From an uncultured archaeon (GTDB taxonomy: Archaea; Nanobdellota; Nanobdellia; Pacearchaeales; GW2011-AR1): a stretch of DNA of 44,099 nucleotides. Below, one piece after another: positions 4,576-28,977 of the stretch. The notes below the pieces were generated by a model. The model made no database searches and had not been told where the DNA came from. It was given only the letters and a program-made list of their open reading frames with translations. Position 1 is the first letter of the stretch, and every line of letters begins with the position of its first letter. The translations under genes were made by a program, and so were the position numbers. The DNA is taken from positions 1 to 44,099 of the forward strand of contig CAIQQL010000042.1 in the NCBI GenBank assembly GCA_903873955.1, in the 5' to 3' direction.

Positions 4576-5928
4576 CTACAACTTTTCGATCTTTGGTCCC
4601 TGAGGGGTGTCTTTGACTTCATATCCCCTCTCGCGGATACGTGCACGAAGAATATCTGACTCTGCCCATTTCTTATCCTTGCGGAGCTTTTCACGTTCTG
4701 CTACGAGTTGCTCAACCTCATGTGGCGCGACCACAAAGACTTCCTGCATCTCCTTAAAACCAAAACAGAGCACCCGGTCAAAGTCATAAAGGAGAGAGAG
4801 TTTCTTATGGGTGTCAAAGACCAGATCATCAAGAGCCTCCCAAATGATCTGCATCACCTTTGCCGTGTTCATATCGTCATTGAGGGCATTCACGAAAGCA
4901 GTATGATACTTTTCCGTGGCATCTTCTCCCCCATGAGGGGCCAGTTTAGTCTCTATCACTTTACGTTTAAGACGTTCATAGGCAGCCTTTGCTGCATCAA
5001 GCCGTTCTGCAGAGAAATCAATCGGCTTACGATAATGAGTAGAGATCACAAAATATCGAATGACCTCCGGATCGTAATGCGCAAACAGATCACGGATTGT
5101 CTTGAAATTTCCTAAGCTCTTGCTCATCTTCACATTATCAACATTGACCATACCATTGTGCACCCAGTAGTTTGCGACTTTTTTTCCAAAAGCAGCCTCT
5201 GATTGCGCGATCTCATCTTCATGATGAGGGAACATGAGATCCATCCCACCCCCGTGAATGTCAAAAGGTAACCCTAAAAGGGAAGAAGACATCGCAGAAC
5301 ATTCAATATGCCATCCCGGCCTCCCTGCACCCCAAGGCGAATCCCAAGCAGGCTCACCAGGCTTGCTAAATTTCCAGACAACAAAATCTTCCTTGTTTTT
5401 TTTGCCATCCGCAACCTTAATCCTTGAGAGAGCCTGTTCAGCATCCATTTTTTGCTTTGAGAGATTCCCATACTCCTTAAATTTTGAAACGTCATAATAG
5501 ACACCGTCATCATCCACAACATAGGTATAGCCTTTGGTTGCCAAAAGTGCGATGAGGTCCACCATCTCCTTGATGAATTCGGTTGCTTTAGGCTGGATAT
5601 CAGGAGCCTTCACTTTCAATGCCGCATAATCCTCGCGATGCGCAAGGGTATTGCGTTTGGTGAGCTGCTCAATATCTTCACCTAACTCGTTGGCTTTCTT
5701 GATGATCTTATCATCGACATCAGTGATATTGGAGACAAAGGTCACCTTGTATCCAGAATATTCAAGATATTTACGCAAGGTATCGAAAAAGACCTGCTGA
5801 CGTGCGTGGCCTAAATGGGGAACATCGTTGACTGTGGGTCCGCACACGTACATACGTACTTCATCTTTATGGATCGGTTTGAATACCTCTTTCTTACGGG
5901 TGAGAGTATTGTACAATTTGATTACCAT
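4576..5928 (-). CDS. cysS: cysteinyl-tRNA synthetase
   Basis: Class I motifs HLGHAR (HIGH) and KMSKSLGN (KMSKS). The CysRS-typical blocks CGPTVNDVPHLGHAR and WHIECSAM are present. Confidence 0.92.
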   Translation of the reverse strand: MVIKLYNTLTRKKEVFKPIHKDEVRMYVCGPTVNDVPHLGHARQQVFFDTLRKYLEYSGYKVTFVSNITDVDDKIIKKANELGEDIEQLTKRNTLAHREDYAALKVKAPDIQPKATEFIKEMVDLIALLATKGYTYVVDDDGVYYDVSKFKEYGNLSKQKMDAEQALSRIKVADGKKNKEDFVVWKFSKPGEPAWDSPWGAGRPGWHIECSAMSSSLLGLPFDIHGGGMDLMFPHHEDEIAQSEAAFGKKVANYWVHNGMVNVDNVKMSKSLGNFKTIRDLFAHYDPEVIRYFVISTHYRKPIDFSAERLDAAKAAYERLKRKVIETKLAPHGGEDATEKYHTAFVNALNDDMNTAKVMQIIWEALDDLVFDTHKKLSLLYDFDRVLCFGFKEMQEVFVVAPHEVEQLVAEREKLRKDKKWAESDILRARIRERGYEVKDTPQGPKIEKL

Positions 5929-11370: not shown

Positions 11371-11988
11371 TTACTTTAACGCCTCAGAGCGAGATCCTAA
11401 TAAACTACTTTCACGACCGTTTAGAAAAAGAAGCATGGCCTCTTTGGCAATCCGTTCCATCTCTGGCGCAGTGTATCCAGTTGTATCAATAATGATATCG
11501 TAATGACAAAGGTCATCAATATCCAGATGATAGTATTTTTTATATCTCAGACGCTCTGATGCCTTACGTTTCTTGATGTTCCTCAAGGTCTTTTGGAATG
11601 AGACATTCTCTTTTTCAGTAGCGCGATGCTGATTAAATATCCTTTTTGCCGATTCTTTTTCATCAACAGTCACCAGCACGCTTATAGCCTTGGGCAGGAA
11701 ATGCCATCCGATACGGGAGTCAATTACTACTTTCTTTTTTTTGGCAAGAGATCGTGTGAAATTGTCAATCTCCGTATCAATAAGAGGCGACTTCTGAGCC
11801 TGAGCTGATAATTCAAGCAATGAAACCCCTCTTCCTCTTGCCAGTTGGCGAGCATAATCTCCTGCGGAAAAGTGCTGCAAGGAGAAGGACTTCGCCAGGT
11901 ATTTTGCGATCGTTGATTTTCCTGACCCAGGTGTTCCAGAGACCACTATTTGTATATCCTTAGGCAGAGTTCTCGATTTTAGCGCCAT
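11371..11988 (-). CDS. cmk: archaeal-type cytidylate (CMP) kinase
   Basis: P-loop SGTPGSGKSTIAKYLA. The remainder follows the archaeal cmk pattern (SAGDYARQLA...IDTEID...VVIDSRIGWH...RYKKYYHLDIDDLCHYDIIIDT). Confidence 0.75.
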   Translation of the reverse strand: MALKSRTLPKDIQIVVSGTPGSGKSTIAKYLAKSFSLQHFSAGDYARQLARGRGVSLLELSAQAQKSPLIDTEIDNFTRSLAKKKKVVIDSRIGWHFLPKAISVLVTVDEKESAKRIFNQHRATEKENVSFQKTLRNIKKRKASERLRYKKYYHLDIDDLCHYDIIIDTTGYTAPEMERIAKEAMLLFLNGRESSLLGSRSEALK

Positions 11989-11991
11989 GGT

Positions 11992-13104
11992 TTATTCTTT
12001 ATAGATGAAGGAATCTAGAATCTTCTTTGCCTCTTCTTTCTTTTTTCTATGGGAGTCTAAGAAAAGATTTATCTTCTCAATAAGGATTTTCTTCAATTCT
12101 CCACTCAACATCCTTCCAGACTTATACTCCTCATAGATATGATCGAGCTTGGCATCATCAGGCTCAAAGAACATCCTGAGATATTGGTAAGAAACATCTA
12201 TGTCTGGATTTCCTCCAAGCCTGCGATGGTCTTCTATAGTTGACTGCCCACCTGAAAAGGCGTATTTGTTTATCTTTTTCTTGACTTCTTCAGGGGTGTC
12301 TGACAGGTATATGGTCCCCTCTTTTGATGCAGACATTTTTGGGTCTCCATAAAGGGAAGGAATGAACTTAGCATGGAGTGCTGCAGGTTTTGTAAAATGA
12401 AAGTCCCTATGTTCTGCCACATCACGGGTGAGCCTGATGAACGGATCCTGGTCGATGCCTACAGGAACGACCGTCATATGAGCCCCTCTCACAAACTGGG
12501 GAAAAAGTATATGCGCCGCCTGCATTGCTGGATAAAAACTCCAGCCGATGTTGTTTTCTGGCTTGAGACCAAAGACCGCTTTCGCTTCAGAGTAGGTTAT
12601 ACGCTTTGCAATCCTGGCTGCATAGCGATAGATCGAGGTATAGACAAAGTCCTCAAAAATGAACGTCTTTCCCGGTTTAAAACCCAATGCGATAAGATCC
12701 AAGATGTTATCTTCTGAATAACTGATTGCGTTCTCATAGGTTAGCTGGTCTTTGACATAGAACTTCTCATCATCGGAGATAGGTATGAACACTTCGCAGT
12801 CAAACTCATCCTGGAGGGATTTTGCGACAAGGAAAGGGACAAGATGCCCTAGATGCATACGTTCACTTGGTCCGCGACCAGTCAAAACCGAGACCTTCTT
12901 CCCGGCATCATGCGCCTCTAACCATTTATCAAAGTCACGATGGCTAAAATAGATCCCTCTTCGCAAAAGAGGATGTGCAGTCTTTAATCGGTTGTGTATT
13001 TTGTCATTGATAAAAGAAGTCCCAAAGTCCTTGACAAGCTTTTCATAGTTAACCTCTCCGGTTACATCCCAAGGTGTAACGCTAAAATTAGACTTAGTGG
13101 TCAT
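11992..13104 (-). CDS. trpS: tryptophanyl-tRNA synthetase, archaeal/eukaryal type
   Basis: VTPWDV...GRGPSERMHLGHLVPF (HIGH-type) and KMSASKEG (KMSKS-type). I prefer the start at ATG 13104 (MTTKSNFSVTPWDV) to the tracked 13179. A TATA-like TTTTTTAAAG sits about 26 nt upstream of 13104, and this start leaves room for the divergent msrB promoter. Confidence 0.88.
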   Translation of the reverse strand: MTTKSNFSVTPWDVTGEVNYEKLVKDFGTSFINDKIHNRLKTAHPLLRRGIYFSHRDFDKWLEAHDAGKKVSVLTGRGPSERMHLGHLVPFLVAKSLQDEFDCEVFIPISDDEKFYVKDQLTYENAISYSEDNILDLIALGFKPGKTFIFEDFVYTSIYRYAARIAKRITYSEAKAVFGLKPENNIGWSFYPAMQAAHILFPQFVRGAHMTVVPVGIDQDPFIRLTRDVAEHRDFHFTKPAALHAKFIPSLYGDPKMSASKEGTIYLSDTPEEVKKKINKYAFSGGQSTIEDHRRLGGNPDIDVSYQYLRMFFEPDDAKLDHIYEEYKSGRMLSGELKKILIEKINLFLDSHRKKKEEAKKILDSFIYKE

Positions 13105-13125
13105 AGAGTTATCATGAGAGGAAAC

Positions 13126-13135
13126 TTTAAAAAAG
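13126..13135 (-). promoter_or_regulatory. candidate TATA box for trpS-cmk-GTPase operon
   Basis: On the minus strand, CTTTTTTAAAG is centred about 26 nt upstream of ATG 13104. Confidence 0.35.
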
Positions 13136-13213
13136 TTTGTAGAGCGTCCAGGGGAAATAGACCCTGCCTGAAGATCCACAAACCTTAATAATTGCAGAGG
13201 GCTTCAAGATAAT

Positions 13214-13660
13214 ATGGAACAAAAGCCGGAGAGCTATTGGAAGAAAAAGCTTACCCCTTCACAGTTTAAGGTCCTACGAGAGGCAAATACTGAGATGCCT
13301 GGAACGGGAAACTTACTCCATAACAAAGAAACGGGAATCTATACCTGTGCTGGATGCGGCTCAGAACTGTTCTCTTCCGCAACAAAATTTGACTCTGGAA
13401 GCGGCTGGCCAAGTTTTTATGATGCTCTTGAAAACAATATAGAGCTTCATGAAGATACAAGTGAAGGCATGCAGCGCATCGAGGTCCGATGCCGCACTTG
13501 CGGAGGGCATCTAGGACACCTCTTTGATGACGGCCCTCTTCCTTCAGGACAAAGATACTGCATCAATTCCGCAGCATTACAGTTTAAGCAGACCATTGAT
13601 CCCTCGCCCTTAAAGAAAAAACGAGCAGGACTATCGAGCCGTAAAAAGAGACGATCCTAA
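13214..13660 (+). CDS. msrB: peptide-methionine (R)-S-oxide reductase MsrB with a short basic C-terminal tail
   Basis: Zn-binding CxxC pairs (CAGCGSELF, RCRTCGGHLGHLFDDGP), GWPSF and the catalytic RYCINS motif. Confidence 0.9.
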   Translation: MEQKPESYWKKKLTPSQFKVLREANTEMPGTGNLLHNKETGIYTCAGCGSELFSSATKFDSGSGWPSFYDALENNIELHEDTSEGMQRIEVRCRTCGGHLGHLFDDGPLPSGQRYCINSAALQFKQTIDPSPLKKKRAGLSSRKKRRS

Positions 13661-13832
13661 CAGAAAGAAAATCAGCAAAAATGAAATAAAAAACACAAAG
13701 AAATTTATCGTATTCTTTTTCATTATCACCTACCTATCCTCTTTCCCCATAAAGACCTTTCTATCCCACCTCCTCCTCGTATTCTTTACTTTAACTTCAT
13801 AGCCTTTAAAAGGACATTCACGATATATTTTT

Positions 13833-14678
13833 ATGGAATTTACCCTAAAAAAACCACTCCTTGGCGCAGAGATTGAGCTCTGTGTGTATGATATTGACAA
13901 GTCCCTTGCTGTCCCCCTACTGGAAGAAGCATTTGAAGAAGGCGTACGATTACAGAAGGTATTCAATTTCTATGATCTTGAGAGTGAGCTTTCATTATTG
14001 AATCACAAGCGAACTTTGGAAACTTCCCCAGAACTCCTGCAAGTACTCAAACAAGCCATTGCCATGGGCAAGGAAACCCAAGGAAGATACGATGTAAGCC
14101 TTGGAAAGCAGTTCCTTGAACAAAAAAGGGGGAAAAAGGTAAGTCCGGTCAATTGTTCGTACAAAAATATCCTTATCAAAGGCAATACCGTAACCCTGAC
14201 CCATCCTGATGTGTTAATTGACCTAGGAAGCATAGCCAAAGGATTCATTGGGGACCAGATTGTTGTCTTTTTTCAAAAGCAAGGCGTTGAAAACGGATTT
14301 GTTGATGTCCGAGGAGATTTACGTTTTTTCGGAACAAAGTCTGAACGCATTGCAATTGAGCACCCTCGTGACAAGACACAGTACTTCGCATTCCTTGAAC
14401 TGTCCAATGTAGGTGTTGCCACCTCAGGAGATTACCGTCAATTCACGGGAGACTACGACCATTGCCATATCCTAGGAAAGCAAGAGCTCATCTCGGTGAC
14501 GGTTGTCGCCCCAACCCTGACAGAAGCAGACGTATTTGCCACAGCGGTCTTCACTCTGGATGAACAGGAAAGGAAAAAACTGCTCGCTAAGAACCCCCAG
14601 ATCCAGGTGTTCACCATCGACCGATACTTAAAAGCAAAAACTTATAATGCGCTCATCATTAAAATGGAGGATAAGTAA
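13833..14678 (+). CDS. apbE: FAD:protein FMN transferase (ApbE family), no signal peptide visible
   Basis: IDLGSIAKGFIGD and VGVATSGDYRQF family motifs. The N-terminus MEFTLKKPLLGAEIELCVYD is not hydrophobic. Confidence 0.8.
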   Translation: MEFTLKKPLLGAEIELCVYDIDKSLAVPLLEEAFEEGVRLQKVFNFYDLESELSLLNHKRTLETSPELLQVLKQAIAMGKETQGRYDVSLGKQFLEQKRGKKVSPVNCSYKNILIKGNTVTLTHPDVLIDLGSIAKGFIGDQIVVFFQKQGVENGFVDVRGDLRFFGTKSERIAIEHPRDKTQYFAFLELSNVGVATSGDYRQFTGDYDHCHILGKQELISVTVVAPTLTEADVFATAVFTLDEQERKKLLAKNPQIQVFTIDRYLKAKTYNALIIKMEDK

Positions 14679-14679
14679 T

Positions 14680-16011
14680 ATGGGTGCCAATTCTAACATC
14701 AAATCAAAAGTCGGCCCATTGCTGATCATCCTTCTCGCTCTCGTGCCTGCAGTCATCTGGTTTATTGTCCGTCAGGGAACTGATCGGTTTAACGATTATG
14801 CAACGACTACTCACAGTCTCGGTCAACTTTCTGGGCTTATAGGCATGACTCTTTTTGCATTGTCCTTCTTGATGACCACACGTATGAAGATCATTGAAGA
14901 CTGGTTTGGAGGACTAGACAAAGTGTACAAAGCCCACCACCTGATGGGAGTTCTCGCATTTGTCCTTGTCCTCTTTCACCCTTTGTTGTTGGTAATCAAA
15001 TTTGTCCCCTCCCAGCTTTATCTTGCGGCAGTTTATCTGCTCCCCAGCTCAAGTTGGCCAGTAAATTTTGGCATTGTCGCCTTGCTTTCGATGATCCTCC
15101 TCATCGTGCTCACCATTTTTGCACATATGACCTACCAGAAATGGAAAGTCTCCCATAAATTTATGGGCCTGGTCTTCATCATAGCCTGCTTCCATGTATT
15201 TCTCGTAACTACCGATATCACCTTCTATCCTATCCTGAAATATTACATGCTAGGGATTAGTTTCTTGGGCCTTGCAGCATTTAGTTACACCTTGATCAAA
15301 CCAGTGTTACATACCTCATTACTTTATGAAGTAAGTAAAGTAAACACGCAATACCCCCAATTAACACTCATCTCTCTGAAGCCCAAGGGAAATTCACTTC
15401 AGTTCAAAGCAGGACAGTTTGTTTTTATAAAGATCAGGGGTTCAAACCTTCCTAAAGAACAGCACCCCTTCACCATAGCTTCGTCACCTAGTGAAAAGGA
15501 AATCACCCTGGCGATAAAATCGCTTGGAGACTACACTTCCCAGCTCAAGAATCTTCAGCCAGGAACCCCTGTCGAGATTGAAGGTCCCTATGGCCAGTTT
15601 GATTATCTTACCTGGAAAAGGCCGCAACTCTGGATTGCAGGAGGCATCGGGATCACACCGTTCTTAAGCATGGCTTCCTATGCTGCGGGAACTGGGCAAT
15701 TACCAGGACCAATAACGCTGTTTTATTGCACCAAGAACAGAGAAGAGTCAGTTTTCTTGCAAAAACTAGAGCAAATTTCTCAAAAGCTAGGCCAGGAAAA
15801 ATTCAAAGTCGTCCTCCATTGTTCCCAAGAAAACGGTTATCTAAATACCGAGTTCCTAGGACAACAGATGAACGGCCAAGGACAGCATATCCAAGATATG
15901 GACATCCTTCTTTGCGGTCCGCCAGCAATGATGGAGGGTCTTGCCAAAAGCTTTGAAAAGAAGGGGATAAAGAAAGGCCAGATTCATTATGAGGAGTTCA
16001 ATATCAAATGA
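14680..16011 (+). CDS. NOX/ferric-reductase-like flavocytochrome (6-TM ferric reductase domain fused to an FAD/NAD(P)H-binding FNR-like domain)
   Basis: Bis-histidine pairs in two helices: HHLMGVLAFVLVLFH (H-x13-H / H-x12-H) and HKFMGLVFIIACFH (H-x12-H). FAD motif HPFTIASSP, NAD(P)H motif IAGGIGITPF and C-terminal LLCGPP are present. GGAGG lies 10 nt upstream of ATG 14680, which is 1 nt after the apbE stop. Confidence 0.8.
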   Translation: MGANSNIKSKVGPLLIILLALVPAVIWFIVRQGTDRFNDYATTTHSLGQLSGLIGMTLFALSFLMTTRMKIIEDWFGGLDKVYKAHHLMGVLAFVLVLFHPLLLVIKFVPSQLYLAAVYLLPSSSWPVNFGIVALLSMILLIVLTIFAHMTYQKWKVSHKFMGLVFIIACFHVFLVTTDITFYPILKYYMLGISFLGLAAFSYTLIKPVLHTSLLYEVSKVNTQYPQLTLISLKPKGNSLQFKAGQFVFIKIRGSNLPKEQHPFTIASSPSEKEITLAIKSLGDYTSQLKNLQPGTPVEIEGPYGQFDYLTWKRPQLWIAGGIGITPFLSMASYAAGTGQLPGPITLFYCTKNREESVFLQKLEQISQKLGQEKFKVVLHCSQENGYLNTEFLGQQMNGQGQHIQDMDILLCGPPAMMEGLAKSFEKKGIKKGQIHYEEFNIK

Positions 16012-16364
16012 AAACAAAACTTTTAGTTGGCATATCCTTGGCAGTATTTGTTTTGCTAAGTGTGAACATTATTGCGTTTGGGTTAATTTTAGGAAATAAC
16101 CAAAACAACCAGCAACAGAAGATTATCCTACAGCAGAATACCACCGCAGCAATATCGCGTCAGCAAGACCCGCAGTCCGCAGTAATCTTAAACAACCAGA
16201 CTCAGGCAGCTACTGCCACAAGCACGGCAAGCACAAATTCTGGAAGCTCGACAAACAATGGAGCCGCATCCAGTACAACCACACAACAAAACACGATGAT
16301 GCCTCCGGTAACCACCACCCAGACTCAAACGAAGATGCCTCCACGCACCACAAGGGCCTCTTAA
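16008..16364 (+). CDS. N-terminally anchored low-complexity (Q/N/T/S-rich) extracytoplasmic protein
   Basis: ATGA overlap with the NOX-like gene. One TM (LLVGISLAVFVLLSVNIIAFGLIL) is followed by NQNNQQQKIILQQNTT...TATSTASTNSGSSTNNGAASSTTTQQ. Confidence 0.5.
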   Translation: MKTKLLVGISLAVFVLLSVNIIAFGLILGNNQNNQQQKIILQQNTTAAISRQQDPQSAVILNNQTQAATATSTASTNSGSSTNNGAASSTTTQQNTMMPPVTTTQTQTKMPPRTTRAS

Positions 16365-16411
16365 GAAGTTAAATGACTATTTTTAGGCGCAATGTCTCCA
16401 TATATTGAAGA

Positions 16412-16870
16412 TCAAGAAGAACTTAGGATATATCCATCTGCATCCACAAGTACTGCATGGTCGTCCGCCAGACTACGTTCCCCGTCAGGCGCCGCATCAT
16501 CGCCTGAAGAGCGATCTATAAAATAAAGGCTTTCGCCAGGAACAACGACATAATCCTGGTCAACATATTCAGAGGATAAAGCTTTCAAGGTTATATTCAA
16601 TGATCCGTCAGGCATCGTATTCCTTTGCAACTGAAAGCCGGATAATGCCTGTTGAGCCCCACGGTCTAGATTGACCACGGAGATAAGGTGGGCAAATGGC
16701 CAGTCAGGAGAATCAGTAATACGAACACGATTAGTTTGCATAGATGAACTCTTCAAATTAGGGCTAGGAGCATTAACCCCATATGCCCAACGCATGAGAA
16801 GATATCCTGACAAACAAACCAAAAATATTGCAAGGATGGCGAAAGTAATGGAAATCGTTTTATTTTTCAT
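16412..16870 (-). CDS. membrane-anchored or secreted hypothetical protein
   Basis: ATG start, N-terminal TM/signal segment ISITFAILAIFLVCLSGYLL and an acidic C-terminal domain. Confidence 0.45.
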   Translation of the reverse strand: MKNKTISITFAILAIFLVCLSGYLLMRWAYGVNAPSPNLKSSSMQTNRVRITDSPDWPFAHLISVVNLDRGAQQALSGFQLQRNTMPDGSLNITLKALSSEYVDQDYVVVPGESLYFIDRSSGDDAAPDGERSLADDHAVLVDADGYILSSS

Positions 16871-16987
16871 AATCAGATATATGCATCAACCCTTTTATCC
16901 TTTGTGAAAGTTACCCCCTAAAAAAGGATTTGAAAAAATCCTATAACCGGTTAGATAAAATAACGCTCAAATATAGACAGAAGAGTG

Positions 16988-17581
16988 TTATTTTGCCTTA
17001 TTCCTTCTTTTTATCAATCTAATGACCAGATAGACTGCAAGAGCAACCAAGAGCGCCACAACAAAGGAATATTGCACCAGGACCAAGAGCTCATTCCAGG
17101 TATCCTTGAAATAATATCCAATTAAGGAGTACAGTAGTGCTGCGACCAACTGCCCGAGGATAACTGCGCTGATAAATTTCCTAGGCCTTAATTTTTCAAA
17201 ACCACTTAAGTAATTTATCGCCAGACCCAAACCGGTAAAAAGAAACCTACTGAGGAAGATGTACAAAAATCCGTGCTTGTTCAAATAGGATCTTGCTCGG
17301 CCCTCATTTTTATGATACCATCTGAATTTTTTTAGATATTTTCTCAAAGCGTTTGAAAATGTCCATGCCACAGAATACGTCAATAAGTCACCAAAAACAC
17401 TCGCTATCAAAACCAAAGCGATGAGAAAGAGCAGGCTATTGAAATTTATAGCAAAGGAAGCAAAGGAAGCGACTAACACCTCTATTTCTGGAACGATGAC
17501 TATGGAGGAGGCCATAACCAGTATAAAAAGAGTAAAAAGGCTATAGGGGCTATTGAAAATAGCAGTAAGAAAAAGAACCAT
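16988..17581 (-). CDS. DedA/VTT-domain-like membrane protein
   Basis: FGDLLTYSVAW...YLNKHGFLYIFLSRFLF.GLGLAINYLSG resembles the DedA (SNARE-associated) core. I prefer ATG 17581 (TAATG overlap with the upstream gene stop) to the tracked TTG at 17623. Confidence 0.5.
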   Translation of the reverse strand: MVLFLTAIFNSPYSLFTLFILVMASSIVIVPEIEVLVASFASFAINFNSLLFLIALVLIASVFGDLLTYSVAWTFSNALRKYLKKFRWYHKNEGRARSYLNKHGFLYIFLSRFLFTGLGLAINYLSGFEKLRPRKFISAVILGQLVAALLYSLIGYYFKDTWNELLVLVQYSFVVALLVALAVYLVIRLIKRRNKAK

Positions 17582-17931
17582 TATCTTACCAAGCTGTTTA
17601 ATTCCTCTTTTACTGAGAGACAATCAAGTTTATTTTTAGTGCAAAGATTCGTTAAAGAAGTCATTAAATTTTCATCAGTAGGAGAGATGCTTAGCTCTTG
17701 AAACAATTGCGATTTGGAGATGTTAAAATGTCTTAGGATCGTGTTAGGAGTCATCCAAAGTTCGATAGCAGGAGAGTGGTTTTCTTTGAAATAGCTCTGA
17801 TGACTTCTCCAGGAATGATAAGTGTTCACGGAAGTGCTTACCAGAAAGATAACCAGGATGAGTAGACAAACCAGAACCATTGCATAGATGAAAATGTAAG
17901 GTTTCTGTCTTGGCACCTTCTTTTTTTTCAT
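17581..17931 (-). CDS. small N-terminally anchored hypothetical protein
   Basis: MKKKKVPRQK followed by the TM IFIYAMVLVCLLILVIFLV. It is translationally coupled to the DedA-like gene. Confidence 0.4.
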   Translation of the reverse strand: MKKKKVPRQKPYIFIYAMVLVCLLILVIFLVSTSVNTYHSWRSHQSYFKENHSPAIELWMTPNTILRHFNISKSQLFQELSISPTDENLMTSLTNLCTKNKLDCLSVKEELNSLVR

Positions 17932-18058
17932 ATACCCTTAAGGCCTTGGTGATATAAAAGCTTGATGTTTCACACCTTCCAAATAAGTGATTCCCGCTTC
18001 TAATCGCAATCAGCATTGTTAACAAAAAGCTTAAGTATTATTGTCAATAAATAGAGCC

Positions 18059-18778
18059 ATGGACAATTTTATCATCTTTCTTGCATTGATAACCTTCTGC
18101 TCTACCCTTATCGGAGGGGCAGTGATCATCAAGTTCAAGAAATATCTTCCCTATTTCTTTGCATTTGCTGCCGGAAGTCTGATTGCTGTCTCTTTCTTGG
18201 ATCTCCTGCCTGAGAGTCTGGAACTCTCAAACAGCATAGGCCTTCCGATACGAAACATCATGCTAGTCATCGTGTTTTCCTTCTTTTTTTATAGTTTTCT
18301 TGAAAGATTCTTCTTGACCCACCCTGCAGAAGGGCATGAAGGCCATAATCACATCATGGGTCCGATTGGCGCAGGAAGCCTGGTGATCCATAGCTTTTTG
18401 GATGGTATCGCAATTGGCGCCGCATTTCACGTAAATCCCGCGATAGGTTCGATAGTTGCCCTTGCAGTCATCTCCCATGATTTCACCGATGGCATCAATA
18501 CAGTTGCAGTCATGTTGAAGAATAAGCAGACCACCCGAAGAGCAATAACATTCCTCATCTTTGACGCCTTAGCCCCGGTTATAGGTGTAGTGGCAGCGAC
18601 TGCTTTGGATATACCTCAGACTGTATTGGCTTTGATATTGGCATTTTTTGTAGGAGAGTTCCTTTATATCGGCGCAGCAACTCTGTTCCCTGAAACCAGA
18701 AAAGAGATGTCCAAGGGAATAATCCTGGCCATGGCATTAGGCATCATCGTCATCACCATATTAACTTCCTTGATCTAA
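18059..18778 (+). CDS. ZIP-family divalent metal transporter (ZupT-like)
   Basis: HSFLDGIAIGAAF and HDFTDGI metal-binding helix motifs and a His-rich loop HPAEGHEGHNH. I prefer ATG at 18059 to the tracked TTG at 18041. Confidence 0.75.
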   Translation: MDNFIIFLALITFCSTLIGGAVIIKFKKYLPYFFAFAAGSLIAVSFLDLLPESLELSNSIGLPIRNIMLVIVFSFFFYSFLERFFLTHPAEGHEGHNHIMGPIGAGSLVIHSFLDGIAIGAAFHVNPAIGSIVALAVISHDFTDGINTVAVMLKNKQTTRRAITFLIFDALAPVIGVVAATALDIPQTVLALILAFFVGEFLYIGAATLFPETRKEMSKGIILAMALGIIVITILTSLI

Positions 18779-19591: not shown

Positions 19592-20641
19592 ATGAGTCTT
19601 AGTAAAAACATGGATGAATCAACTCCGATTAAGGAAGTAAGTACGCCCGTATCTCAGAAAGTTTCTTTTCTTGATTCTATGAAAGCTAATCTTTGGATGC
19701 CTGCAACAATCATACTTGCAGTTGTCTTGATTATAGTCTTGGTCTTTTTTGTTGGGAAGCCCGGAGCAGCAGTTAGCGGAAATACAGTCAACGCCAATAC
19801 GAATGATTTAAGTCAAACAACTATTGGTCAAAAGGGAGTTGAATTCATCAATGCACAGCTTATGAGGGGGAATGATAGCGTAACCTTGGATTCAGTTAGT
19901 GATATGGGGGCTTATTATGAAGTGATGGTCAACTATAACAACCGAAAAGTCCCAGCTGATTTCAGCAAGGATGGAAAATACTTCTTTGCCCAGGTCATCC
20001 CACTCAATGCCACATTACCTAAGACCGATACTACTACAACAGCTTCTGCTCCTACGACCCCTGTTCAGATTGAGATAGGAAACTCACCAAAGATTGGAAA
20101 TAGTTCTGCTCCAGTCACCGTAGTTGAATTTTCAGACTTCTCATGCCCATTCTGTGGCGCGGCCTCTGGCCAGGCAGCTGATTTAGTGGCTTATATGAAA
20201 AACAATGACCCTACTTGGGAAGCACCTGTTCCAGGGATTATGAAAGATTATGTTCAAACGGGAAAAGTACAATTTGTCTATAAGTATGCCTTTGGTCACA
20301 CTGGCGGGCATAGTGCAAGTTCGGTCGGCTGGTGTCTTTATGACCAAAATGCGAGCCTTTACTGGACATTCTATGATCAGGCGTTTGCCCATCAAGCAGA
20401 TGTTGAAAGCCTAGACAAGATGAAAGCACTGGCTCAAACTCTTGGTGCGGATATGACCTCATTGAATTCCTGCTTAACTGCCAAGACCCATGATGCCCAA
20501 TTTGATACTGAAGCGGCTCAGGCAACTGCTGCCGGCGTCTCAGGCACCCCTGCATTCTTTGTCAATGGCAAGCTTACAGAAGGTGCAGTTTCCTATCCTA
20601 CACTTAAAGCATCAATTGATGCAGCCCTTGCAGGTAATTAG
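19592..20641 (+). CDS. membrane-anchored DsbA-like thiol:disulfide oxidoreductase
   Basis: N-terminal TM (ATIILAVVLIIVLVFFV), a T-rich linker, and a thioredoxin-fold active site VVEFSDFSCPFCGAA (CPFC). Confidence 0.75.
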   Translation: MSLSKNMDESTPIKEVSTPVSQKVSFLDSMKANLWMPATIILAVVLIIVLVFFVGKPGAAVSGNTVNANTNDLSQTTIGQKGVEFINAQLMRGNDSVTLDSVSDMGAYYEVMVNYNNRKVPADFSKDGKYFFAQVIPLNATLPKTDTTTTASAPTTPVQIEIGNSPKIGNSSAPVTVVEFSDFSCPFCGAASGQAADLVAYMKNNDPTWEAPVPGIMKDYVQTGKVQFVYKYAFGHTGGHSASSVGWCLYDQNASLYWTFYDQAFAHQADVESLDKMKALAQTLGADMTSLNSCLTAKTHDAQFDTEAAQATAAGVSGTPAFFVNGKLTEGAVSYPTLKASIDAALAGN

Positions 20642-23202: not shown

Positions 23203-24036
23203 TTACTCTTTTTGAAGCTCATAACCTTGATAGGGCATCTCCTTACCCTGATAGAGAACAAAGGGGTTGCCATCCGGATGGAATTTATCCTGATGCAAAG
23301 CAAATTCTCCATGAGATATCGCTCTGAGAGCAAAGCGTAGGGAAGGCCAGTCACTGCTTTCCTTCTGAAAATTTTGATGCTTGCCCGCCTCGTTTTGAGT
23401 TATAGGGCGGTCACCAGCATAGGCAATTGATGGTCCCGTGACCAGAATTGCACCAGCATCAGTCTCTGGATCTACCAAAATAATCGAAGACCTCGTCATT
23501 GTCTCACCGGCATGCAATGCGTCAAACACAGCATTTTCACCAATGTAGGTTCTTGAGCCGTCAGGATTAAGTTTTCCAAGATAAGCAGGATGGACATTGA
23601 TCGCACGGTTAGTAAACCTTCGTTGCAATGCTCCTTTGAATAACCTCATATACCCTGCTAGCAACGCCAAATCAAAAACGAAACCTTTTTCTTCCTCAAA
23701 CCCTGCCACCAATCGAAGCAGTTCATGATTATAGACCTGTGATTTCTGTTCATAGGCAACCCTCCCTTCAATGGTTTGCTGGGCAGTTTTCCAGCTCCCA
23801 CACCATTCAAGACCTGGAAGAGTACGGTGGGCAATCCCATATTCTTTGGCATATCTAATTGCACCGATAGTCTCGCCTTTCTTTGTTTCCTTGTCAGTCA
23901 CCAAAAGGTCGATAGAGAAATTACTGCCCGGTAACCTCGACTCCAAGACCGCTTCCCTAAAATTCGTCCCGCTGCCTGATGCGAATGCGACCACTCTCAT
24001 CGTGCCACGAGCCGGATCAAAGATCATTTCACCCAT
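23203..24036 (-). CDS. purN: phosphoribosylglycinamide formyltransferase (PurN-like) with a C-terminal extension
   Basis: VVAFASGSGTNF, LAGYMRL and INVHPAYL (with an insertion before the second half), then ILVDPETDAGAIL. I prefer ATG 24036, 1 nt after the TAA of the upstream gene, to the tracked GTG at 24075. Confidence 0.75.
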   Translation of the reverse strand: MGEMIFDPARGTMRVVAFASGSGTNFREAVLESRLPGSNFSIDLLVTDKETKKGETIGAIRYAKEYGIAHRTLPGLEWCGSWKTAQQTIEGRVAYEQKSQVYNHELLRLVAGFEEEKGFVFDLALLAGYMRLFKGALQRRFTNRAINVHPAYLGKLNPDGSRTYIGENAVFDALHAGETMTRSSIILVDPETDAGAILVTGPSIAYAGDRPITQNEAGKHQNFQKESSDWPSLRFALRAISHGEFALHQDKFHPDGNPFVLYQGKEMPYQGYELQKE

Positions 24037-24037
24037 C

Positions 24038-25999
24038 TTAAAAGGTAAGTTCGGGCTCTTTTGAAGAGCCGACACCTTTATTTTTGATTAGGATACCCGT
24101 TCTCTTTGTTATTTTTCCCGCACATCTGGCTTCGATGCCGTGCTCTTGCGCAAGTTTCAGCACTTTCTCGGGCTCAGGCGTGATGACCAGCATGCCGTTC
24201 CCCATATTCCAAGTCCTATATGCCTCAGCATCTTTGATATTCCCTAACTTTTGGCAGTGCAACATAATAGGGGCTGGCTCAAACAAGTCACCCAAATCAG
24301 CACCAAGACCGCTTGGCTTGAGAATCCTCCCCAGCTTCCCCGGAATGCCTCCGCCCGTTACATGCACAACCCCGTGAAGTTTCGCTTTCGCTTCTTTTGA
24401 GATCCCTCCATGCATATCCACAATTGCATTGCAGTAAATCTTTGAGGGTGTCAGTGCCAATTTACCAAGAGAATTGCCGTTAAAATCCGTCAAATGCCAG
24501 TCTTCTCCATAGGCTTGCTTAAAGACCTTCCTGGCCAGAGAAAGCCCATTGGACCTGAATCCTGCTTCCTTCAATGCAACAACAGCATCTCCTTCTTTTA
24601 TTTCAGACCCTGTGAACAACTTGCCCTTATTTGCAAACCAGACAAGACCCGCACCCCAGTTATAATGAAAGTCTCCAAACCCTCCAACCTGGGCCCCAAG
24701 CTCAGCGAGTTCGCCATTGATGATCGCTACATTCGCCGCTTTTGCAGCATCAACATATCCTCTGGCCAACTGGAGCATCTGGACAATCTTGGAGTTATCA
24801 TCAGAGCCCAACGAGTTTACATCTAAGATTGAACCGACGAGCACAGGTTCCCCGCCCCTGACTACCGCATCATCACACACCATCGCTAAAAGGTCAAATG
24901 CGATCGTACTATGGTCGTTTAGCCTTTCAGCTATCTCGACTTTGGTGCCAATGCCATCAAATCCTAAGCACATCATGGTCCCTGCTGGAAGCCCGCTCAC
25001 ATCAATCATCCTTAATCCCGAGAAATCATCAAAGGGGACAATGACCTCGCCAAGCAGACCTTTCCGGTTCTGCCAAGTCTGCTTTGCAGCATGATACAGG
25101 ATTTTGGATGCGTCATCTCCCAACTCAATGTTGACCCCCGCATCAGCATAACTAAGCGCATCATTCTTTAACTCCCTGGAAAGCATCGGATGCTCAAGGA
25201 CATAATTTACAGCATTACGAAAAAGAGTCAAGGCCGGTTCGTAAAACTCAGGGATCTCGCGATGCTGTCTTCTGAGACTTTCCCGGACATTATGAAAATC
25301 AGGGGCATTTGCAAAAAATAGGGCCCGTTCAGGATGAGGCATCATCCCCAGGATTCTCCCGCTTTTATCGCAGATCGCGGCAATATCACTTACAGACCCG
25401 TTAGGGTTGTAAGGAAAGACCCCATCTGCAAGATCCCCATTCTGCAGGGCATATCTGAACACAATCTGCTTATTTTCTGACAGTTCCTTGAGCACCTCGC
25501 TTGTCGCATAAAACTTGCCTTCGCCATGGGCCACAGGGACATGAAGGATATCAAGATTTTTTGCAAAGACGCTGAGGTCACTTTGTTTTTTCAGGTGCAC
25601 CCATCGGCATTCATACCTTGCAGAGTTGTTGAATGTCAATGCCACTTCCCTTTCCCCATAATTGTTCTTCAGGGCAGGCAAAAGACCGAGATTCACCAGT
25701 ATCTGAAAACCGTTGCAGATGCCAATAATCAGCTTTTCTGCCTCAATGAACTCCAGCAGTTCCTTAAAAATATTCAGTCGTATCTTATTTGCCATGGCGA
25801 TGCCTGAGCCCGTATCATCACCGTAAGAAAACCCTCCTGGAAACACAAGGACCTGATAATCCTTAAGACTCTTTTCCCCGTTGATCAGGTCATTGATATG
25901 AACGATATCCGCTTCTGCGCCAGCCAACTCAAAAGTGAACTTCGTCTCCCGTTCGCAATTAATGCCATATCCTGATAAGACTAACACTTTTGGTTTCAT
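24038..25999 (-). CDS. purQ-purM: fusion protein: FGAM synthase glutaminase (PurQ-like) N-terminal domain plus AIR synthetase (PurM) C-terminal domain
   Basis: The N-terminal ~280 aa carry the triad context GICNGFQ...HGEGKF...MPHPER. From about LSYADAGVNIELGDD onward the sequence follows PurM (FDGIGTKVEIAE...DLLAMVCDDAVVRGGEPV...HVTGGGIPGK). Confidence 0.85.
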   Translation of the reverse strand: MKPKVLVLSGYGINCERETKFTFELAGAEADIVHINDLINGEKSLKDYQVLVFPGGFSYGDDTGSGIAMANKIRLNIFKELLEFIEAEKLIIGICNGFQILVNLGLLPALKNNYGEREVALTFNNSARYECRWVHLKKQSDLSVFAKNLDILHVPVAHGEGKFYATSEVLKELSENKQIVFRYALQNGDLADGVFPYNPNGSVSDIAAICDKSGRILGMMPHPERALFFANAPDFHNVRESLRRQHREIPEFYEPALTLFRNAVNYVLEHPMLSRELKNDALSYADAGVNIELGDDASKILYHAAKQTWQNRKGLLGEVIVPFDDFSGLRMIDVSGLPAGTMMCLGFDGIGTKVEIAERLNDHSTIAFDLLAMVCDDAVVRGGEPVLVGSILDVNSLGSDDNSKIVQMLQLARGYVDAAKAANVAIINGELAELGAQVGGFGDFHYNWGAGLVWFANKGKLFTGSEIKEGDAVVALKEAGFRSNGLSLARKVFKQAYGEDWHLTDFNGNSLGKLALTPSKIYCNAIVDMHGGISKEAKAKLHGVVHVTGGGIPGKLGRILKPSGLGADLGDLFEPAPIMLHCQKLGNIKDAEAYRTWNMGNGMLVITPEPEKVLKLAQEHGIEARCAGKITKRTGILIKNKGVGSSKEPELTF

Positions 26000-28977
26000 G
26001 CAAAACTCCTAAACCTTCGTTTGTAATGCTTTTCAAGCTCACCAACGTCGGTCTGCACAATCTTCGCTCCAGAAAGTCCCTGGATGATGAAGTCTCCAGA
26101 GATCACTTTACCGATTTTTGAAAATCCGGCATGGGCAAAGATACTTTCAAACTCCTTTTCCGATTCCGGAGCAACACTCACCAAGATTCGCGATTGGCTT
26201 TCACTGAAGAGAAGCGCATCATCCCGGTCCGCATCCCCGCTCCGTTTCATTTTAGCAAGATCCACTAATGCCCCGAGTTCTCCGGCGATACACATCTTGG
26301 CCAAAGCGATACCCAATCCTCCAGAATTCACAGGTATGCTGCTTGCTATGATCCCTTTATCAACTGCTTTGCTAAATTCAGAATAAAGTTCGACCGCCTT
26401 GCCGGCATTGACCTTAGGGACCTTGTTCCCGATGTAAGGCTTGCCCGTATTCTCTTTCCCAGCAAAATCAAAATATTCACTTGCCCCCAGCTCGTTTTTT
26501 GTTTCTCCCAGAAGATACAAGGTGTCCCCAGCATATTTTGCGTCAAGAGAAACTGTCTTTCGATAGTCTTCGATAACACCCAGAGAAGAGATAAGCAAGG
26601 TAGGCAGCACTGAAATCTTCACTGCATTTCCAAGTTCATCAAATCCTTTGAAATCATTAAACATACTGTCTTTGCCAGAGATGAAGGGAGTTTTGTACGC
26701 CAAGGCATAGTCATAACAAGCCTTTGCGGCAGCCTTGAGTTCACCAAGCCTTCCAGGTTCATCAGAACTGCACCAACAAAAATTGTCCAAGAGCGCCAGT
26801 TTTTGCAGATCTCCGCCTGCCGCAATTACATTCTTAATCGCGGTGTCGATTGCACAAGCAGCCATATGATACGGATTGATGAGGCTATACCTTGCGTTAA
26901 TTCCCTGGCTTGCGATAACTGCCTTCTTTGAATCTAAAAGAGGCCTTATTGCCGTCGTATAGGCATTGACCTCCCCTTTTCCTTGCACGGGCTTGAGAAT
27001 AGAACCTCCCTGGACCTCATGGTCATACTGCCTGGAGATAAAGGAAAAACTGGCAAGATTATGCTGTCTTAGCATCCCCAGCAAACTTGAAGTCAGGTTT
27101 GGAGGACAAGAAAAGGCAGGCTCATCATTCCAGGCCTTGGTTGTGATTGATTTGAGTTTCTTTTTAGGGACCCCGTCATGCAAGAACATCATGTCCAGGT
27201 CCAATATTTTTTTATTGTCATAGTTCACTACAGCCCTCCTAGATTCATTGAACTCTCCAATGATTGTTGCCTCAACACCCCGCTTTTCCATCAACTTCAG
27301 GAATTCGTCAGACTTTTCCTTAGGCACAGATAAAGTCATCCTTTCCTGCGACTCACTCACCCACATTTCCCAGAGTTGGATACCTGCATATTTTACCGGC
27401 ACTTTCTCCAAATCAACGACAAAACCTCCACATTCACGCGCCATCTCTGCGACAGAACATGACAGCCCACCTGCCCCATTATCAGTTATACTGTTATAGA
27501 GAACCGCATCTCTTGCTTCCTTGACAAGAGCATCACTCATCTTTTTTTGGGTGATTGGATCCCCAATCTGCACCGCAGTAGCGGGGCTTCCCGAGTCAAG
27601 TGCCTCTGATGAAAATGTAGCCCCGTGTATCCCATCTTTGCCTACCCTGCCACCTACAACAACAATATAGTCTCCTGCTTGCGCCTTCTTGAGATGCCCT
27701 TGAGTCCCTGCAATAGTTCGAGGTATAAGCCCCGCAGTACCTACAAAAACCAGCGGCTTGCCTTTATAGCTGTCATCAAAATAAACAAAGCCCTGTGGAG
27801 TCGGGATTCCTGAACAATTGCCACCGACCTTTACTCCATCGATGACTCCTTCCATGATCCTTAAGGGAGAAAGCGCAGGGTTGGTCTTATTTTTCCCTCT
27901 ATAGAGAATGCTCTTGTCTTCAGGATAACCAAAACAAAACCCGTACCGATTCATGATAGGGAGCGCCCCCTGACCAAAACCGATGGCATCCCTATTCACC
28001 CCGACAATGCCTGTGATTGAACCTCCAAAAGGATCAAGTGCAGAAGGGCTGTTATGGGTCTCCACTTTGTCAGTCACCAGATAGTGCTCATCAAAGATGA
28101 TCCCTCCCGAATTATCTTCAAAAACCGAGACGCAGAAATCGCGATCCCCCTTCATGGCCCGAATCTTGTTTGTGGCGTTTCTGATATAGGTCTTAAATAT
28201 CCCCTCCTTCAGTTCATCAAGCTCATTTGCAAAGATAGTATGCTTGCAATGTTCGCTCCATGTCTGGGCTATCGATTCCAGTTCAATGTCAAAAGGCATC
28301 CTCCTTTCTTCCTTCAAGAAATATTCCCGTATCACTTTCATGGACTCAAGGTCAAGAGCTAACGGACCTCTTCTTGAGCCATCAGCATTCATGATGCCTT
28401 GCTTGCCTATCTTGCTCAGCTCCTCATCACTCACCTCGAGATTAACCGTCTCAACAGCAGGAAGATCGAGGAGTTTAACTCGCGGGACAATATAGCTCAT
28501 GCCCTTCTCTTTCAGATATCTTTCCCGGCTTTTAATTGAAATACGGTTGATGAGTCCATTTGCCAACTGGTTTGCGATCTGTATTGTCTGGGGTTCGGTC
28601 AAGGTTCCTGTTACCAAGAACAGCTGCGAGCTAAAGACAGTTCCCTTCTCAAGACTCAAACGAAACAGATCAACAATCCCTTCCTGTACTGTGTTTGCTA
28701 TGTTATCCGTAACACCTGGAAGAAAACCAATCTCAATCGCCCAATCAGCTTTCATCTCCGTCGGAGCATCAATGATGAAGCGCTGTGTTATTGGATTTGC
28801 AAGCATCTGCGCGATGAATCGTAGTTGCTCTGGAGAAAAATCGTAATCAATGGTATATACCTCAACCACCTGGACATCAAGGATTTTTTCAGTTATCCCG
28901 AATGTGAGCATCTCTTTCTTTTTAACGCCGGCTCTCGCATCAGGGATTCTCGAAGAAATTTCTATCCGATGAGCCAT
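25996..28977 (-). CDS. purL: FGAM synthase, large-type N-terminal (PurS-like) domain plus synthetase domain, lacking the glutaminase domain
   Basis: 993 aa. PurL blocks ETHNSPSALDPFGGSITG, DNGAGGLS, ESQERM and GGLG are present. About 200 aa N-terminal to the synthetase core resemble the PurS-like/linker region of large PurL. ATGA overlap with purQ-purM. Confidence 0.88.
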   Translation of the reverse strand: MAHRIEISSRIPDARAGVKKKEMLTFGITEKILDVQVVEVYTIDYDFSPEQLRFIAQMLANPITQRFIIDAPTEMKADWAIEIGFLPGVTDNIANTVQEGIVDLFRLSLEKGTVFSSQLFLVTGTLTEPQTIQIANQLANGLINRISIKSRERYLKEKGMSYIVPRVKLLDLPAVETVNLEVSDEELSKIGKQGIMNADGSRRGPLALDLESMKVIREYFLKEERRMPFDIELESIAQTWSEHCKHTIFANELDELKEGIFKTYIRNATNKIRAMKGDRDFCVSVFEDNSGGIIFDEHYLVTDKVETHNSPSALDPFGGSITGIVGVNRDAIGFGQGALPIMNRYGFCFGYPEDKSILYRGKNKTNPALSPLRIMEGVIDGVKVGGNCSGIPTPQGFVYFDDSYKGKPLVFVGTAGLIPRTIAGTQGHLKKAQAGDYIVVVGGRVGKDGIHGATFSSEALDSGSPATAVQIGDPITQKKMSDALVKEARDAVLYNSITDNGAGGLSCSVAEMARECGGFVVDLEKVPVKYAGIQLWEMWVSESQERMTLSVPKEKSDEFLKLMEKRGVEATIIGEFNESRRAVVNYDNKKILDLDMMFLHDGVPKKKLKSITTKAWNDEPAFSCPPNLTSSLLGMLRQHNLASFSFISRQYDHEVQGGSILKPVQGKGEVNAYTTAIRPLLDSKKAVIASQGINARYSLINPYHMAACAIDTAIKNVIAAGGDLQKLALLDNFCWCSSDEPGRLGELKAAAKACYDYALAYKTPFISGKDSMFNDFKGFDELGNAVKISVLPTLLISSLGVIEDYRKTVSLDAKYAGDTLYLLGETKNELGASEYFDFAGKENTGKPYIGNKVPKVNAGKAVELYSEFSKAVDKGIIASSIPVNSGGLGIALAKMCIAGELGALVDLAKMKRSGDADRDDALLFSESQSRILVSVAPESEKEFESIFAHAGFSKIGKVISGDFIIQGLSGAKIVQTDVGELEKHYKRRFRSFA

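Follow-up and report, generated by a model that had tools for sequence, protein, structure and literature searches.

The closest described counterparts of the gene cluster reported here are the 'MsrQ-like' flavinylation systems, in which a ferric-reductase-type cytochrome (PF01794), usually fused to an NAD-binding domain (PF00175), is encoded beside apbE and is proposed to pass electrons from NAD(P)H to an extracytosolic flavin. The survey of Meheust et al. 2021 (PMC8238504) lists 1,797 such clusters, mostly from Actinobacteria and 1,437 of them with an NAD-binding domain, so the bacterial combination of PF01794, an NAD-binding domain, ApbE and FMN_bind is already described bioinformatically. 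Here, we analyzed a stretch of 44,099 nucleotides from an uncultured archaeon of the Pacearchaeales (GenBank assembly GCA_903873955.1, contig CAIQQL010000042.1), called the window below, in which apbE (13833-14678), a gene for an NADPH oxidase-like (NOX-like) flavocytochrome b (14680-16011) and a gene for a small anchored protein, which we call the tail protein (16008-16364), follow one another on the forward strand. As in the published systems, which have a PF01794 gene within five genes of apbE or of an FMN-bind gene, the window has its PF01794 gene close to apbE, after a 1-nt gap and with PF01794 and PF00175 in one protein. The published clusters have a folded FMN_bind domain (PF04205) with an SGAT motif and apbE downstream, whereas the window has a bare C-terminal tail and apbE upstream; its cluster contains no FMN_bind gene, its ApbE is leaderless, and the only signal-anchor-like N-terminus in the unit is that of the tail. 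We class the window cluster as a variant of the 'MsrQ-like' systems, new in its DPANN host lineage, in its gene order and the separate tree position of its NOX-like protein and, above all, in its domain-less putative tail substrate. The published type was itself recovered in Actinobacteria loci such as L052, L058, L070 and L162, and a literature search found no published work combining DPANN with ApbE. We assign a probability of about 0.55 to the reading that the three genes form an operon for a quinone-independent transmembrane electron-export module with an ApbE-flavinylated tether.

The flavocytochrome resembles SpNOX of Streptococcus pneumoniae (PDB 8qt6, 8qq7), since both are single chains of six transmembrane (TM) helices and a FAD/NAD(P)H domain, with the same histidine spacing (14/13), motifs and C-terminal phenylalanine. 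It differs in its low identity (~ 25%), in belonging to an archaeal clade and in being encoded with ApbE and an anchored putative acceptor; neither of the Streptococcus loci examined (L041, L042) has a partner of the ApbE or tail type. SpNOX reduces O2 in vitro and its outer haem is exposed, but O2 may not be its physiological acceptor and a protein acceptor has been proposed (PMC11564096). MsrPQ (E. coli YedYZ) is also comparable, in that a ferric-reductase-domain dihaem protein with an exposed outer haem reduces a partner outside the membrane; unlike the window protein, MsrQ has no dehydrogenase domain, draws on quinol and is partnered by the molybdoenzyme MsrP.

Co-inheritance of apbE, the NOX-like gene and the tail gene

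At 174 fetched loci, we classified the neighbours of the NOX-like gene. Genome and metagenome scans gave mostly distant bacterial loci, and the DPANN clade was surveyed by 12 exact-protein look-ups. The triad of apbE, NOX-like gene and tail gene was found at at least 12 DPANN loci (the window, L001, L081, L084, L086, L088, L167, L168, L170, L172, L173 and L174), so the linkage that the initial annotation had proposed to check in related genomes is conserved rather than sporadic. The close clade was defined as relatives scoring above 300 bits against the window NOX-like protein, and in ten distinct loci of this clade apbE lies immediately upstream, either overlapping the NOX-like gene or at most 31 nt away. 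At nine of these ten, a small open-reading frame (ORF) overlaps the NOX-like stop codon and encodes a basic N-terminus, a TM helix, a linker rich in T/S/P/Q/N and a T-[R/G/S]-A-S end. An ApbE substrate would be expected beside apbE and co-inherited with it, as the tail is in 12 triads; an intact tail gene was present at 9 of 10 close-clade loci with ApbE and at 0 of 11 without it (Fisher p = 3.4e-5). The tenth ApbE-containing locus, L087, carries a 1-nt deletion just before the motif (5030-5052, AGAAGAACT-GTGCCTCTTAA), after which the ORF runs on for 20 codons, and restoring one base yields RRT-x-AS-stop; the deletion is either a sequencing error or a fresh pseudogene. In L166 (Nanoarchaeota), which has no apbE, the NOX-like gene is followed by a truncated tail remnant (4797-4900, MNSKLVVGIALAVFVLLIVNIIIIGII-stop), consistent with decay of the tail after loss of ApbE. 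A blind look-up of three tail proteins placed each of their genes 4 nt into the end of a NOX-like gene preceded by apbE (L172, L173, L174), although the contig end truncates the upstream gene of L174, which is still recognizable as the C-terminus of ApbE. Pairing through contigs of identical size gave 26 further candidate ApbE/NOX-like pairs. The only conserved neighbours of the tail gene are apbE and the NOX-like gene, with the flanking genes varying in every locus.

Where ApbE is absent from the close clade, a different partner is common. At 7 of the 11 loci the NOX-like gene has a gene for a TM-anchored cytochrome b5 protein as its neighbour, which directly follows it in six cases and immediately precedes it in L169. 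These assignments were verified with Pfam (Cyt-b5, E = 1e-20 to 5e-46). Two of the proteins carry b5 domains in tandem, encoded downstream of the NOX-like gene at 5287-6288 of L099 and 7305-8390 of L006 (E = 5e-46 and 1e-39), an arrangement reminiscent of multi-haem or multi-flavinylated wires. A custom b5 hidden Markov model (HMM) also matched the L167 tail, a false match through low-complexity similarity that was discarded. TM-anchored cytochrome b5 genes also occur near the triad in L081 (3804-4142, directly upstream of apbE) and L173 (150-569); these two loci carry both kinds of partner, and a flavin tail and a b5 protein can therefore coexist in one genome.

In a neighbour-joining tree, the loci with ApbE and a tail form one clade with two secondary losses, nested among b5-partnered sequences from DPANN and the candidate phyla radiation (CPR). 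The actinobacterial clusters of NOX-like protein, FMN_bind and ApbE fall far from the DPANN clade; the two kinds of ApbE-linked cluster are thus not closest relatives, which suggests that the partners were recruited separately. Residue-by-residue comparison of the NOX-like proteins with and without ApbE gave four differing columns, none of which is a new Ser/Thr, and the column in the FAD strand is confounded by phylogeny.

Single-pass proteins also follow NOX-like genes outside the archaeal clade. At 19 bacterial loci an ORF of 30-63 aa that amounts to a single TM helix (e.g., MRRLFADRLVVATGVIVVLLAFVFAFVRVNA) stands directly downstream of the NOX-like gene, examples being L044 (2929-3024), L121, L146, L137, L150, L062, L020, L043, L025, L034, L039, L112, L120 and L123, and in 60 of 159 loci the downstream ORF starts with a TM helix. 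Prokaryotic NOX homologues may generally have a single-pass partner subunit, a feature that has gone undescribed.

The tail protein family

The window tail protein (118 aa) consists of a basic N-terminus (MKTK), a TM helix at residues 5-27 (16020-16088), a disordered linker of ~ 85 aa rich in Q/T/S/N/P and a C-terminal T-R-A-S. The latter (T115-R116-A117-S118) is encoded by codons ACA AGG GCC TCT at 16350-16361 of the forward strand, directly before the stop, and S118 is the proposed acceptor of flavin mononucleotide (FMN). The initial annotation had overlooked this conserved end, while its description of a low-complexity, anchored, extracytoplasmic protein agrees with the Q/T-rich composition, the single TM helix and the charge rule. 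No Pfam or NCBIfam family matches the protein. A profile built from ten tails retrieved 13 proteins from an index of 5.8 billion proteins, all 13 with a T-x-A-S end, and an exhaustive HMMER search of 1.84 billion cluster representatives returned 188 matches of 63-137 aa (E <= 1e-3). On this basis, the tail proteins are an unannotated family of at least 188 clusters.

Motifs were counted in 155 inspected sequences, each the representative of a 50%-identity cluster. T-x-A-S ends 139 of them and S-x-A-S another 12, giving 151 of 155 with [T/S]-x-A-S; one ends in A-R-A-S and three are truncated or spurious. Within the 139, Arg occupies position x 116 times, Ser 12 times and Ala, His and Gly three times each, and positions -5 and -6 are mostly Arg. 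Conservation is confined to the TM helix (K4, F14, G25) and the last four residues, the linkers being unalignable. The codons of the motif vary between loci, with both serine codon families in use, and this encoding of one C-terminal motif by differing codons points to selection on the peptide. Among 12,874 ORFs from the first 165 loci, only 16 end in [ST][RG]A[ST], eight of which are tail proteins, and the tail is the sole such ORF of the 195 in the window. The canonical [ST]GA[ST] is found in no plausible gene of the window; its single instance lies in an antisense ORF inside purL.

The flank N-terminal to the helix has a net charge of +3.7 compared to +0.2 after it, and the N-terminal side is the more positive in 146 of 152 members and the reverse in none, so that the positive-inside rule predicts an extracellular C-terminus. 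N-glycosylation sequons in the 152 tails number 310 compared to 271 ± 13 in shuffled sequences (z = 2.9; p = 0.0005 in an earlier 10-protein set). When the window NOX-like and tail proteins were modeled as a fusion in one chain with AlphaFold2 (AF2), the tail helix had a predicted local distance difference test (pLDDT) score of 64-85 and the last 50 residues fell below 50.

The ApbE and NOX-like proteins

To our knowledge, the only known activity of ApbE is the transfer of FMN from FAD onto the last Ser/Thr of [S/T]-G-A-[S/T]. The window protein (281 aa) matches Pfam ApbE (PF02424) with E = 5.5e-44 and 151 bits, well above the gathering cut-off of 25.6, and has both the FAD/Mg site and the catalytic histidine, with ATSGDY at residues 196-201, the histidine in HCHIL at 210-214 and TEAD at 230-233. 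In the alignment to V. cholerae ApbE (6nxi), the HCHIL histidine corresponds to H257, the residue mutated in 6nxj. Its 120 closest homologues keep SGDY without exception and the His motif in 116 cases, and judged by these residues the window ApbE looks catalytically intact. No signal peptide or lipobox, which are typical but not universal in ApbE, is present on the window protein, and an N-terminal hydrophobic segment is absent from all 120 closest homologues and from all 12 triad ApbEs. Cytosolic ApbEs do exist (PMC12052999). Five of the homologues (P0186, P0188, P0192, P0210 and P0251) have a second precomputed Pfam match, PF27030, besides PF02424. The ApbEs of actinobacterial clusters with a NOX-like protein and FMN_bind (L058 8133-8936, L064, L070, L052 and L163) also have no obvious signal peptide in their longest ORF, with start codons that are uncertain at these GC-rich loci; the published 'MsrQ-like' systems may thus share the mismatch between an ApbE in the cytosol and a substrate that is exported.

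The initial annotation had identified the 443-aa protein as a prokaryotic NOX-type enzyme, and this identification is borne out by sequence and by model. Pfam Ferric_reduct (PF01794), FAD_binding_8 and NAD_binding_1 (PF00175) each score above their gathering thresholds, and the best sequence match in the Protein Data Bank (PDB) is SpNOX (E = 5.2e-37, residues 52-442). The AF2 model (pLDDT 93.7, predicted TM-score 0.90) has six TM helices (residues 5-30, 40-65, 79-106, 126-147, 152-175 and 184-210) followed by a cytosolic FAD/NAD(P)H dehydrogenase domain, and Foldseek placed SpNOX 8qt6 at the top (E = 8e-27, TM-scores 0.80/0.88), followed by DUOX1, NOX2 and NOX5. The two bis-histidine pairs lie within helices of the model, as expected of haem ligands. 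In TM3, the inner-haem ligand H86 (14935-14937) aligns to SpNOX H69 and the outer-haem ligand H100 (14977-14979) to H83; in TM5, the inner-haem ligand H159 (15154-15156) aligns to H129 and the outer-haem ligand H172 (15193-15195) to H142, with the haem roles taken from PMC11564096. The spacings, H86-X13-H100 (14 apart) and H159-X12-H172 (13 apart), are NOX-like as annotated, and all four histidines are invariant in 65 homologues. The three motifs that had been read from the sequence were found as the FAD motif HPFTIASSP (residues 262-270, 15463-15489), the NAD(P)H motif GGIGITPF (321-328, 15640-15663) and CGP (412-414, 15913-15921), all on the forward strand. In the same homologues the FAD and NAD(P)H motifs vary little or not at all at most of their positions, L104, four residues past H100, is nearly invariant, and F440, the counterpart of the FAD-stacking F397 in the alignment to SpNOX, never varies.

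The bacterial NOX criteria of Hajjar et al. (PMC5676040) include ~ six TM helices, bis-histidyl pairs His-X12/14-His in TM3/TM5 and the FAD filter H[PSA]F[TS][LIMV]. The window protein passes all of their sequence filters, with its bis-His pairs in TM3/TM5, HPFTI at 262-266 and GIGITP at 322-327, and it resembles a characterized member, SpNOX, in full-length sequence and in fold. By sequence and model it is a single-chain prokaryotic NOX homologue of the SpNOX-like family. That survey contained only one archaeal sequence (PMC5676040), and the closest homologues among the matches listed here come from Nanoarchaeota, Pacearchaeota, Woesearchaeota and Micrarchaeota, with Patescibacteria slightly further away.

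Junctions and neighbouring genes

The four ORFs of the region lie where the initial annotation had placed them, and both of the tight junctions it reported were read in the sequence. The apbE stop codon TAA (14676-14678) is followed by a 1-base gap and the NOX-like ATG at 14680. A Shine-Dalgarno-like GGAGG (14666-14670, + strand) stands 9 nt before this ATG and homologues begin at the equivalent position, so we take 14680 rather than 14647 as the start. The sequence ATGA at 16008-16011 forms a 4-nt overlap between the NOX-like and tail genes.

The first gene, msrB (13214-13660, + strand; Pfam SelR E = 5e-49, TIGR00357 175.8 bits compared to a cut-off of 113), is upstream on the same strand as the initial annotation stated, but it is not tightly coupled to the cluster. 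It is separated from apbE by a 172-nt AT-rich spacer that contains T-rich tracts 3′ of msrB and then a separate TATA-box-like element of archaeal type, TTTAAAA (13805-13811, + strand), centred 25 nt 5′ of the apbE ATG; this element suggests a leaderless transcript start for the operon that is independent of msrB. A search of all fetched loci with the window MsrB gave no matches outside the window, so that msrB adjoins the NOX-like gene at none of the others, and the window MsrB has no signal peptide. The nine ORFs scanned in the region 11371-18778, a set that takes in the neighbours of the operon at either end, gave no match to an MsrP-type family. The msrB gene is outside the functional unit, and apbE, the NOX-like gene and the tail gene very probably constitute one such unit.

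The ZIP transporter (18041-18778, + strand) and DedA (16988-17623) genes were considered as conserved partners and rejected, since the gene lists of the other triad loci contain neither. The ZIP-family metal transporter and a 349-aa protein with a DsbA/Thioredoxin_4 domain (19592-20641, + strand), which is likewise not conserved beside the triad elsewhere, lie 2-4 kb downstream of the operon, and both relate to the handling of redox or metals outside the cytoplasm. A 152-aa ORF (16412-16870, - strand) runs convergently towards the tail gene; its product has a TM helix at the N-terminus, matches no Pfam or NCBIfam entry and was not observed next to the triad elsewhere. Purine biosynthesis is represented by a large PurL-type FGAM synthase in two ORFs (23203-28977, - strand) and by PurD (37497-38789, + strand), a fuller biosynthetic repertoire than DPANN-type genomes are usually given credit for. 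Neither the Rfam nor the tRNA scan of the window gave a match.

Discussion

By analogy with SpNOX, cytosolic NAD(P)H would deliver two electrons to the FAD of the NOX-like dehydrogenase domain, from which they would pass singly through the inner haem (H86/H159) to the outer haem (H100/H172); sequence and model show the architecture of this carrier path, from NAD(P)H by way of FAD to the two haems. ApbE would join FMN, taken from FAD, through a phosphoester bond to the C-terminal serine S118 of the tail. Since ApbE is leaderless, we infer that this attachment takes place in the cytosol, on the last-synthesized residues of the short tail and before the disordered chain threads out. The conserved single TM helix would then hold the tail beside the NOX-like protein, and the long disordered and probably glycosylated linker would hold FMN outside the cell as a tethered one-/two-electron carrier, reduced at the exposed outer haem and oxidized by an external acceptor, possibly Fe(III), O2 or a host or mineral surface. 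In the relatives without ApbE, a cytochrome b5 on a similar anchor and linker appears to do the job of the flavin tail.

The end of the tail suits an ApbE site, as it agrees at three of the four core positions, is terminal and disordered and is co-inherited with apbE. Short motifs of this kind are known to work, since a 7-residue linear motif suffices for ApbE and is best placed at a protein terminus (PMC12052999), and in FMN_red proteins an unstructured extension at the C-terminus is the site of flavinylation (PMC11334425). The tail shares with both a short, unstructured, terminal linear motif, but the flavin-tag reads D-x-x-[S/T]-G-A-[S/T] and FMN_red has its own flavin pocket, whereas the tail reads R-R/V-[T/S]-R-A-S-COOH and has no pocket. 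The exchange of b5 for a flavin module matches, by analogy, the 'modular flavinylation/cytochrome usage' of Meheust et al. (PMC8238504), in which flavin and cytochrome modules are interchangeable. Flavin-based extracellular electron transfer in Listeria, as cited in PMC8238504 and PMC9973259, likewise involves ApbE-type flavinylation of a tethered surface protein (FmnB/PplA) and carries electrons from cytosolic NADH to external acceptors in a fermentative organism; there, however, the components are Ndh2, quinone, EetAB, the lipoprotein FmnB and exported FAD, in place of the two-haem NOX-like protein and leaderless ApbE of the window. As DPANN archaea generally lack quinones, pairing a NOX-like protein with a tethered carrier would give them an analogue of this process that needs no quinone.

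Several observations weigh against flavinylation of the tail. The canonical motif is kept at only three of four core positions ([T/S], A and S), as the glycine position is occupied by Arg in 116 of 139 tails and by Gly in three, and Arg or Val stands where an upstream Asp is usual. We know of no ApbE substrate of the form [T/S]-R-A-S-COOH and of no precedent for flavinylation before export, which the leaderless state of ApbE (120/120 homologues) would require of a tail predicted to lie outside. Neither Pfam nor NCBIfam detects a flavin-binding fold on the tail (FMN_bind, DUF2271, DUF3570, Flavodoxin_4 or FMN_red). The enrichment of sequons is modest and thus weak evidence, and the fusion model has no usable interface and is uninformative on docking. 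For every member of the family, flavinylation, docking and electron transfer are proposals made from sequences and models. We therefore treat the tail as a protein that would work like an ApbE substrate, not as a canonical member of that class.

Other explanations of the operon can be weighed against the same data. The NOX-like protein might be a true NAD(P)H oxidase, reducing O2 to superoxide or H2O2, with the tail as a stabilizing or maturation subunit like p22phox or DUOXA and with ApbE as a flavin-trafficking or loading factor that does not modify the tail covalently. This would fit the cytosolic location that ApbE shares with the dehydrogenase domain, the departure of the tail motif from [S/T]GA[S/T], the bare single-TM micro-ORFs after many bacterial NOX-like genes, which make a TM partner possible without a redox module, and the reduction of O2 by SpNOX in vitro (PMC11564096). 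It leaves unexplained, however, the [T/S]-x-A-S end of at least 151 divergent proteins, the strict co-occurrence of ApbE and tail and the presence of an electron carrier, cytochrome b5, in the place of the tail when ApbE is absent, and we consider it unlikely. Moreover, the nearly invariant L104 stands four residues past H100, where NOX2 presumably has its O2-site histidine. Still less can be said for a module that feeds methionine-sulfoxide repair as MsrPQ does, the role that the initial annotation had raised. Although msrB lies only 172 nt upstream on the same strand and MsrQ is a ferric-reductase-domain protein, msrB adjoins none of the other loci examined, MsrB has no export signal, T-rich tracts and a separate TATA-like element intervene before apbE, and the nine scanned ORFs include no MsrP-type partner, all of which makes this role highly improbable.

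Two further explanations move the site of flavinylation away from the tail. Cytosolic ApbE could flavinylate the dehydrogenase strand of the NOX-like protein, HPF[T/S]-I-A-S, which also contains T-x-A-S, turning a dissociable FAD site into covalent FMN and making the tail motif a second site or an unrelated one. Enzyme and target would then both be cytosolic and the conflict of compartments would disappear, and Ala at the third position is indeed commoner in the ApbE-linked proteins (9/10 compared to 3/11), but this correlation is confounded by phylogeny. The sequence resembles what we take to be the ordinary FAD motif of the FNR family (compare YSIAS of plant FNR), it is kept in the ApbE-less L083 and L166, and in the AF2 model it forms a buried beta-strand. 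In 28 ApbE-linked proteins the would-be acceptor Ser is Ala or Cys in two and the Ala is replaced in four. Engineered 'flavin-fixing' of non-covalent flavoproteins by ApbE has been demonstrated (PMC12052999), yet on balance this is a minor and rather improbable rival. We regard as equally doubtful the possibility that [T/S]-x-A-S is a docking or sorting signal, addressed to the outer face of the NOX-like protein, to a protease or to a surface-attachment system, with the ApbE substrate encoded elsewhere. The basic residues of an R-R-T-R-A-S end could make electrostatic contacts with haem propionates or acidic loops, and the visible portion of the genome is only 44 kb. Nonetheless, apbE and the NOX-like gene are the sole conserved neighbours of a tail gene whose flanks otherwise differ in every locus, no FMN_bind or canonical-motif protein is present among plausible genes of the window, and the loss of ApbE is accompanied by loss or decay of the tail.

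Returning to the electron-export module with a flavinylated tether, we tentatively extend it to the whole family. The tails may be a natural 'flavin-tag', a class of ApbE substrate not described before and made only of an anchor, a disordered, glycosylated leash and [T/S]-x-A-S, loaded in the cytosol and acting as a swinging shuttle from the outer haem to distant acceptors. Such a shuttle might dispose of NAD(P)H electrons for quinone-less DPANN, and the b5 and flavin tethers might be the missing acceptors of NOX homologues. The in-vivo target of prokaryotic NOX homologues is left open in the SpNOX papers, and anchored single-pass proteins with a cytochrome b5, an FMN_bind domain or a [T/S]-x-A-S tail stand directly downstream of NOX-like genes across the family, where they are candidate acceptors that can be cloned. 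If flavinylated, the tail would rank as the smallest natural substrate of ApbE and as the first to lack a flavin-binding fold, and the motif that ApbE recognizes would be widened. The combination of a leaderless ApbE with an apparently exported substrate, which may also hold in the actinobacterial clusters, raises the prospect of FMN attachment before export. DPANN archaea are thought to depend on hosts and to be without respiratory chains, and a two-gene electron outlet for NAD(P)H would bear on their redox balance and on their exchange with host surfaces.

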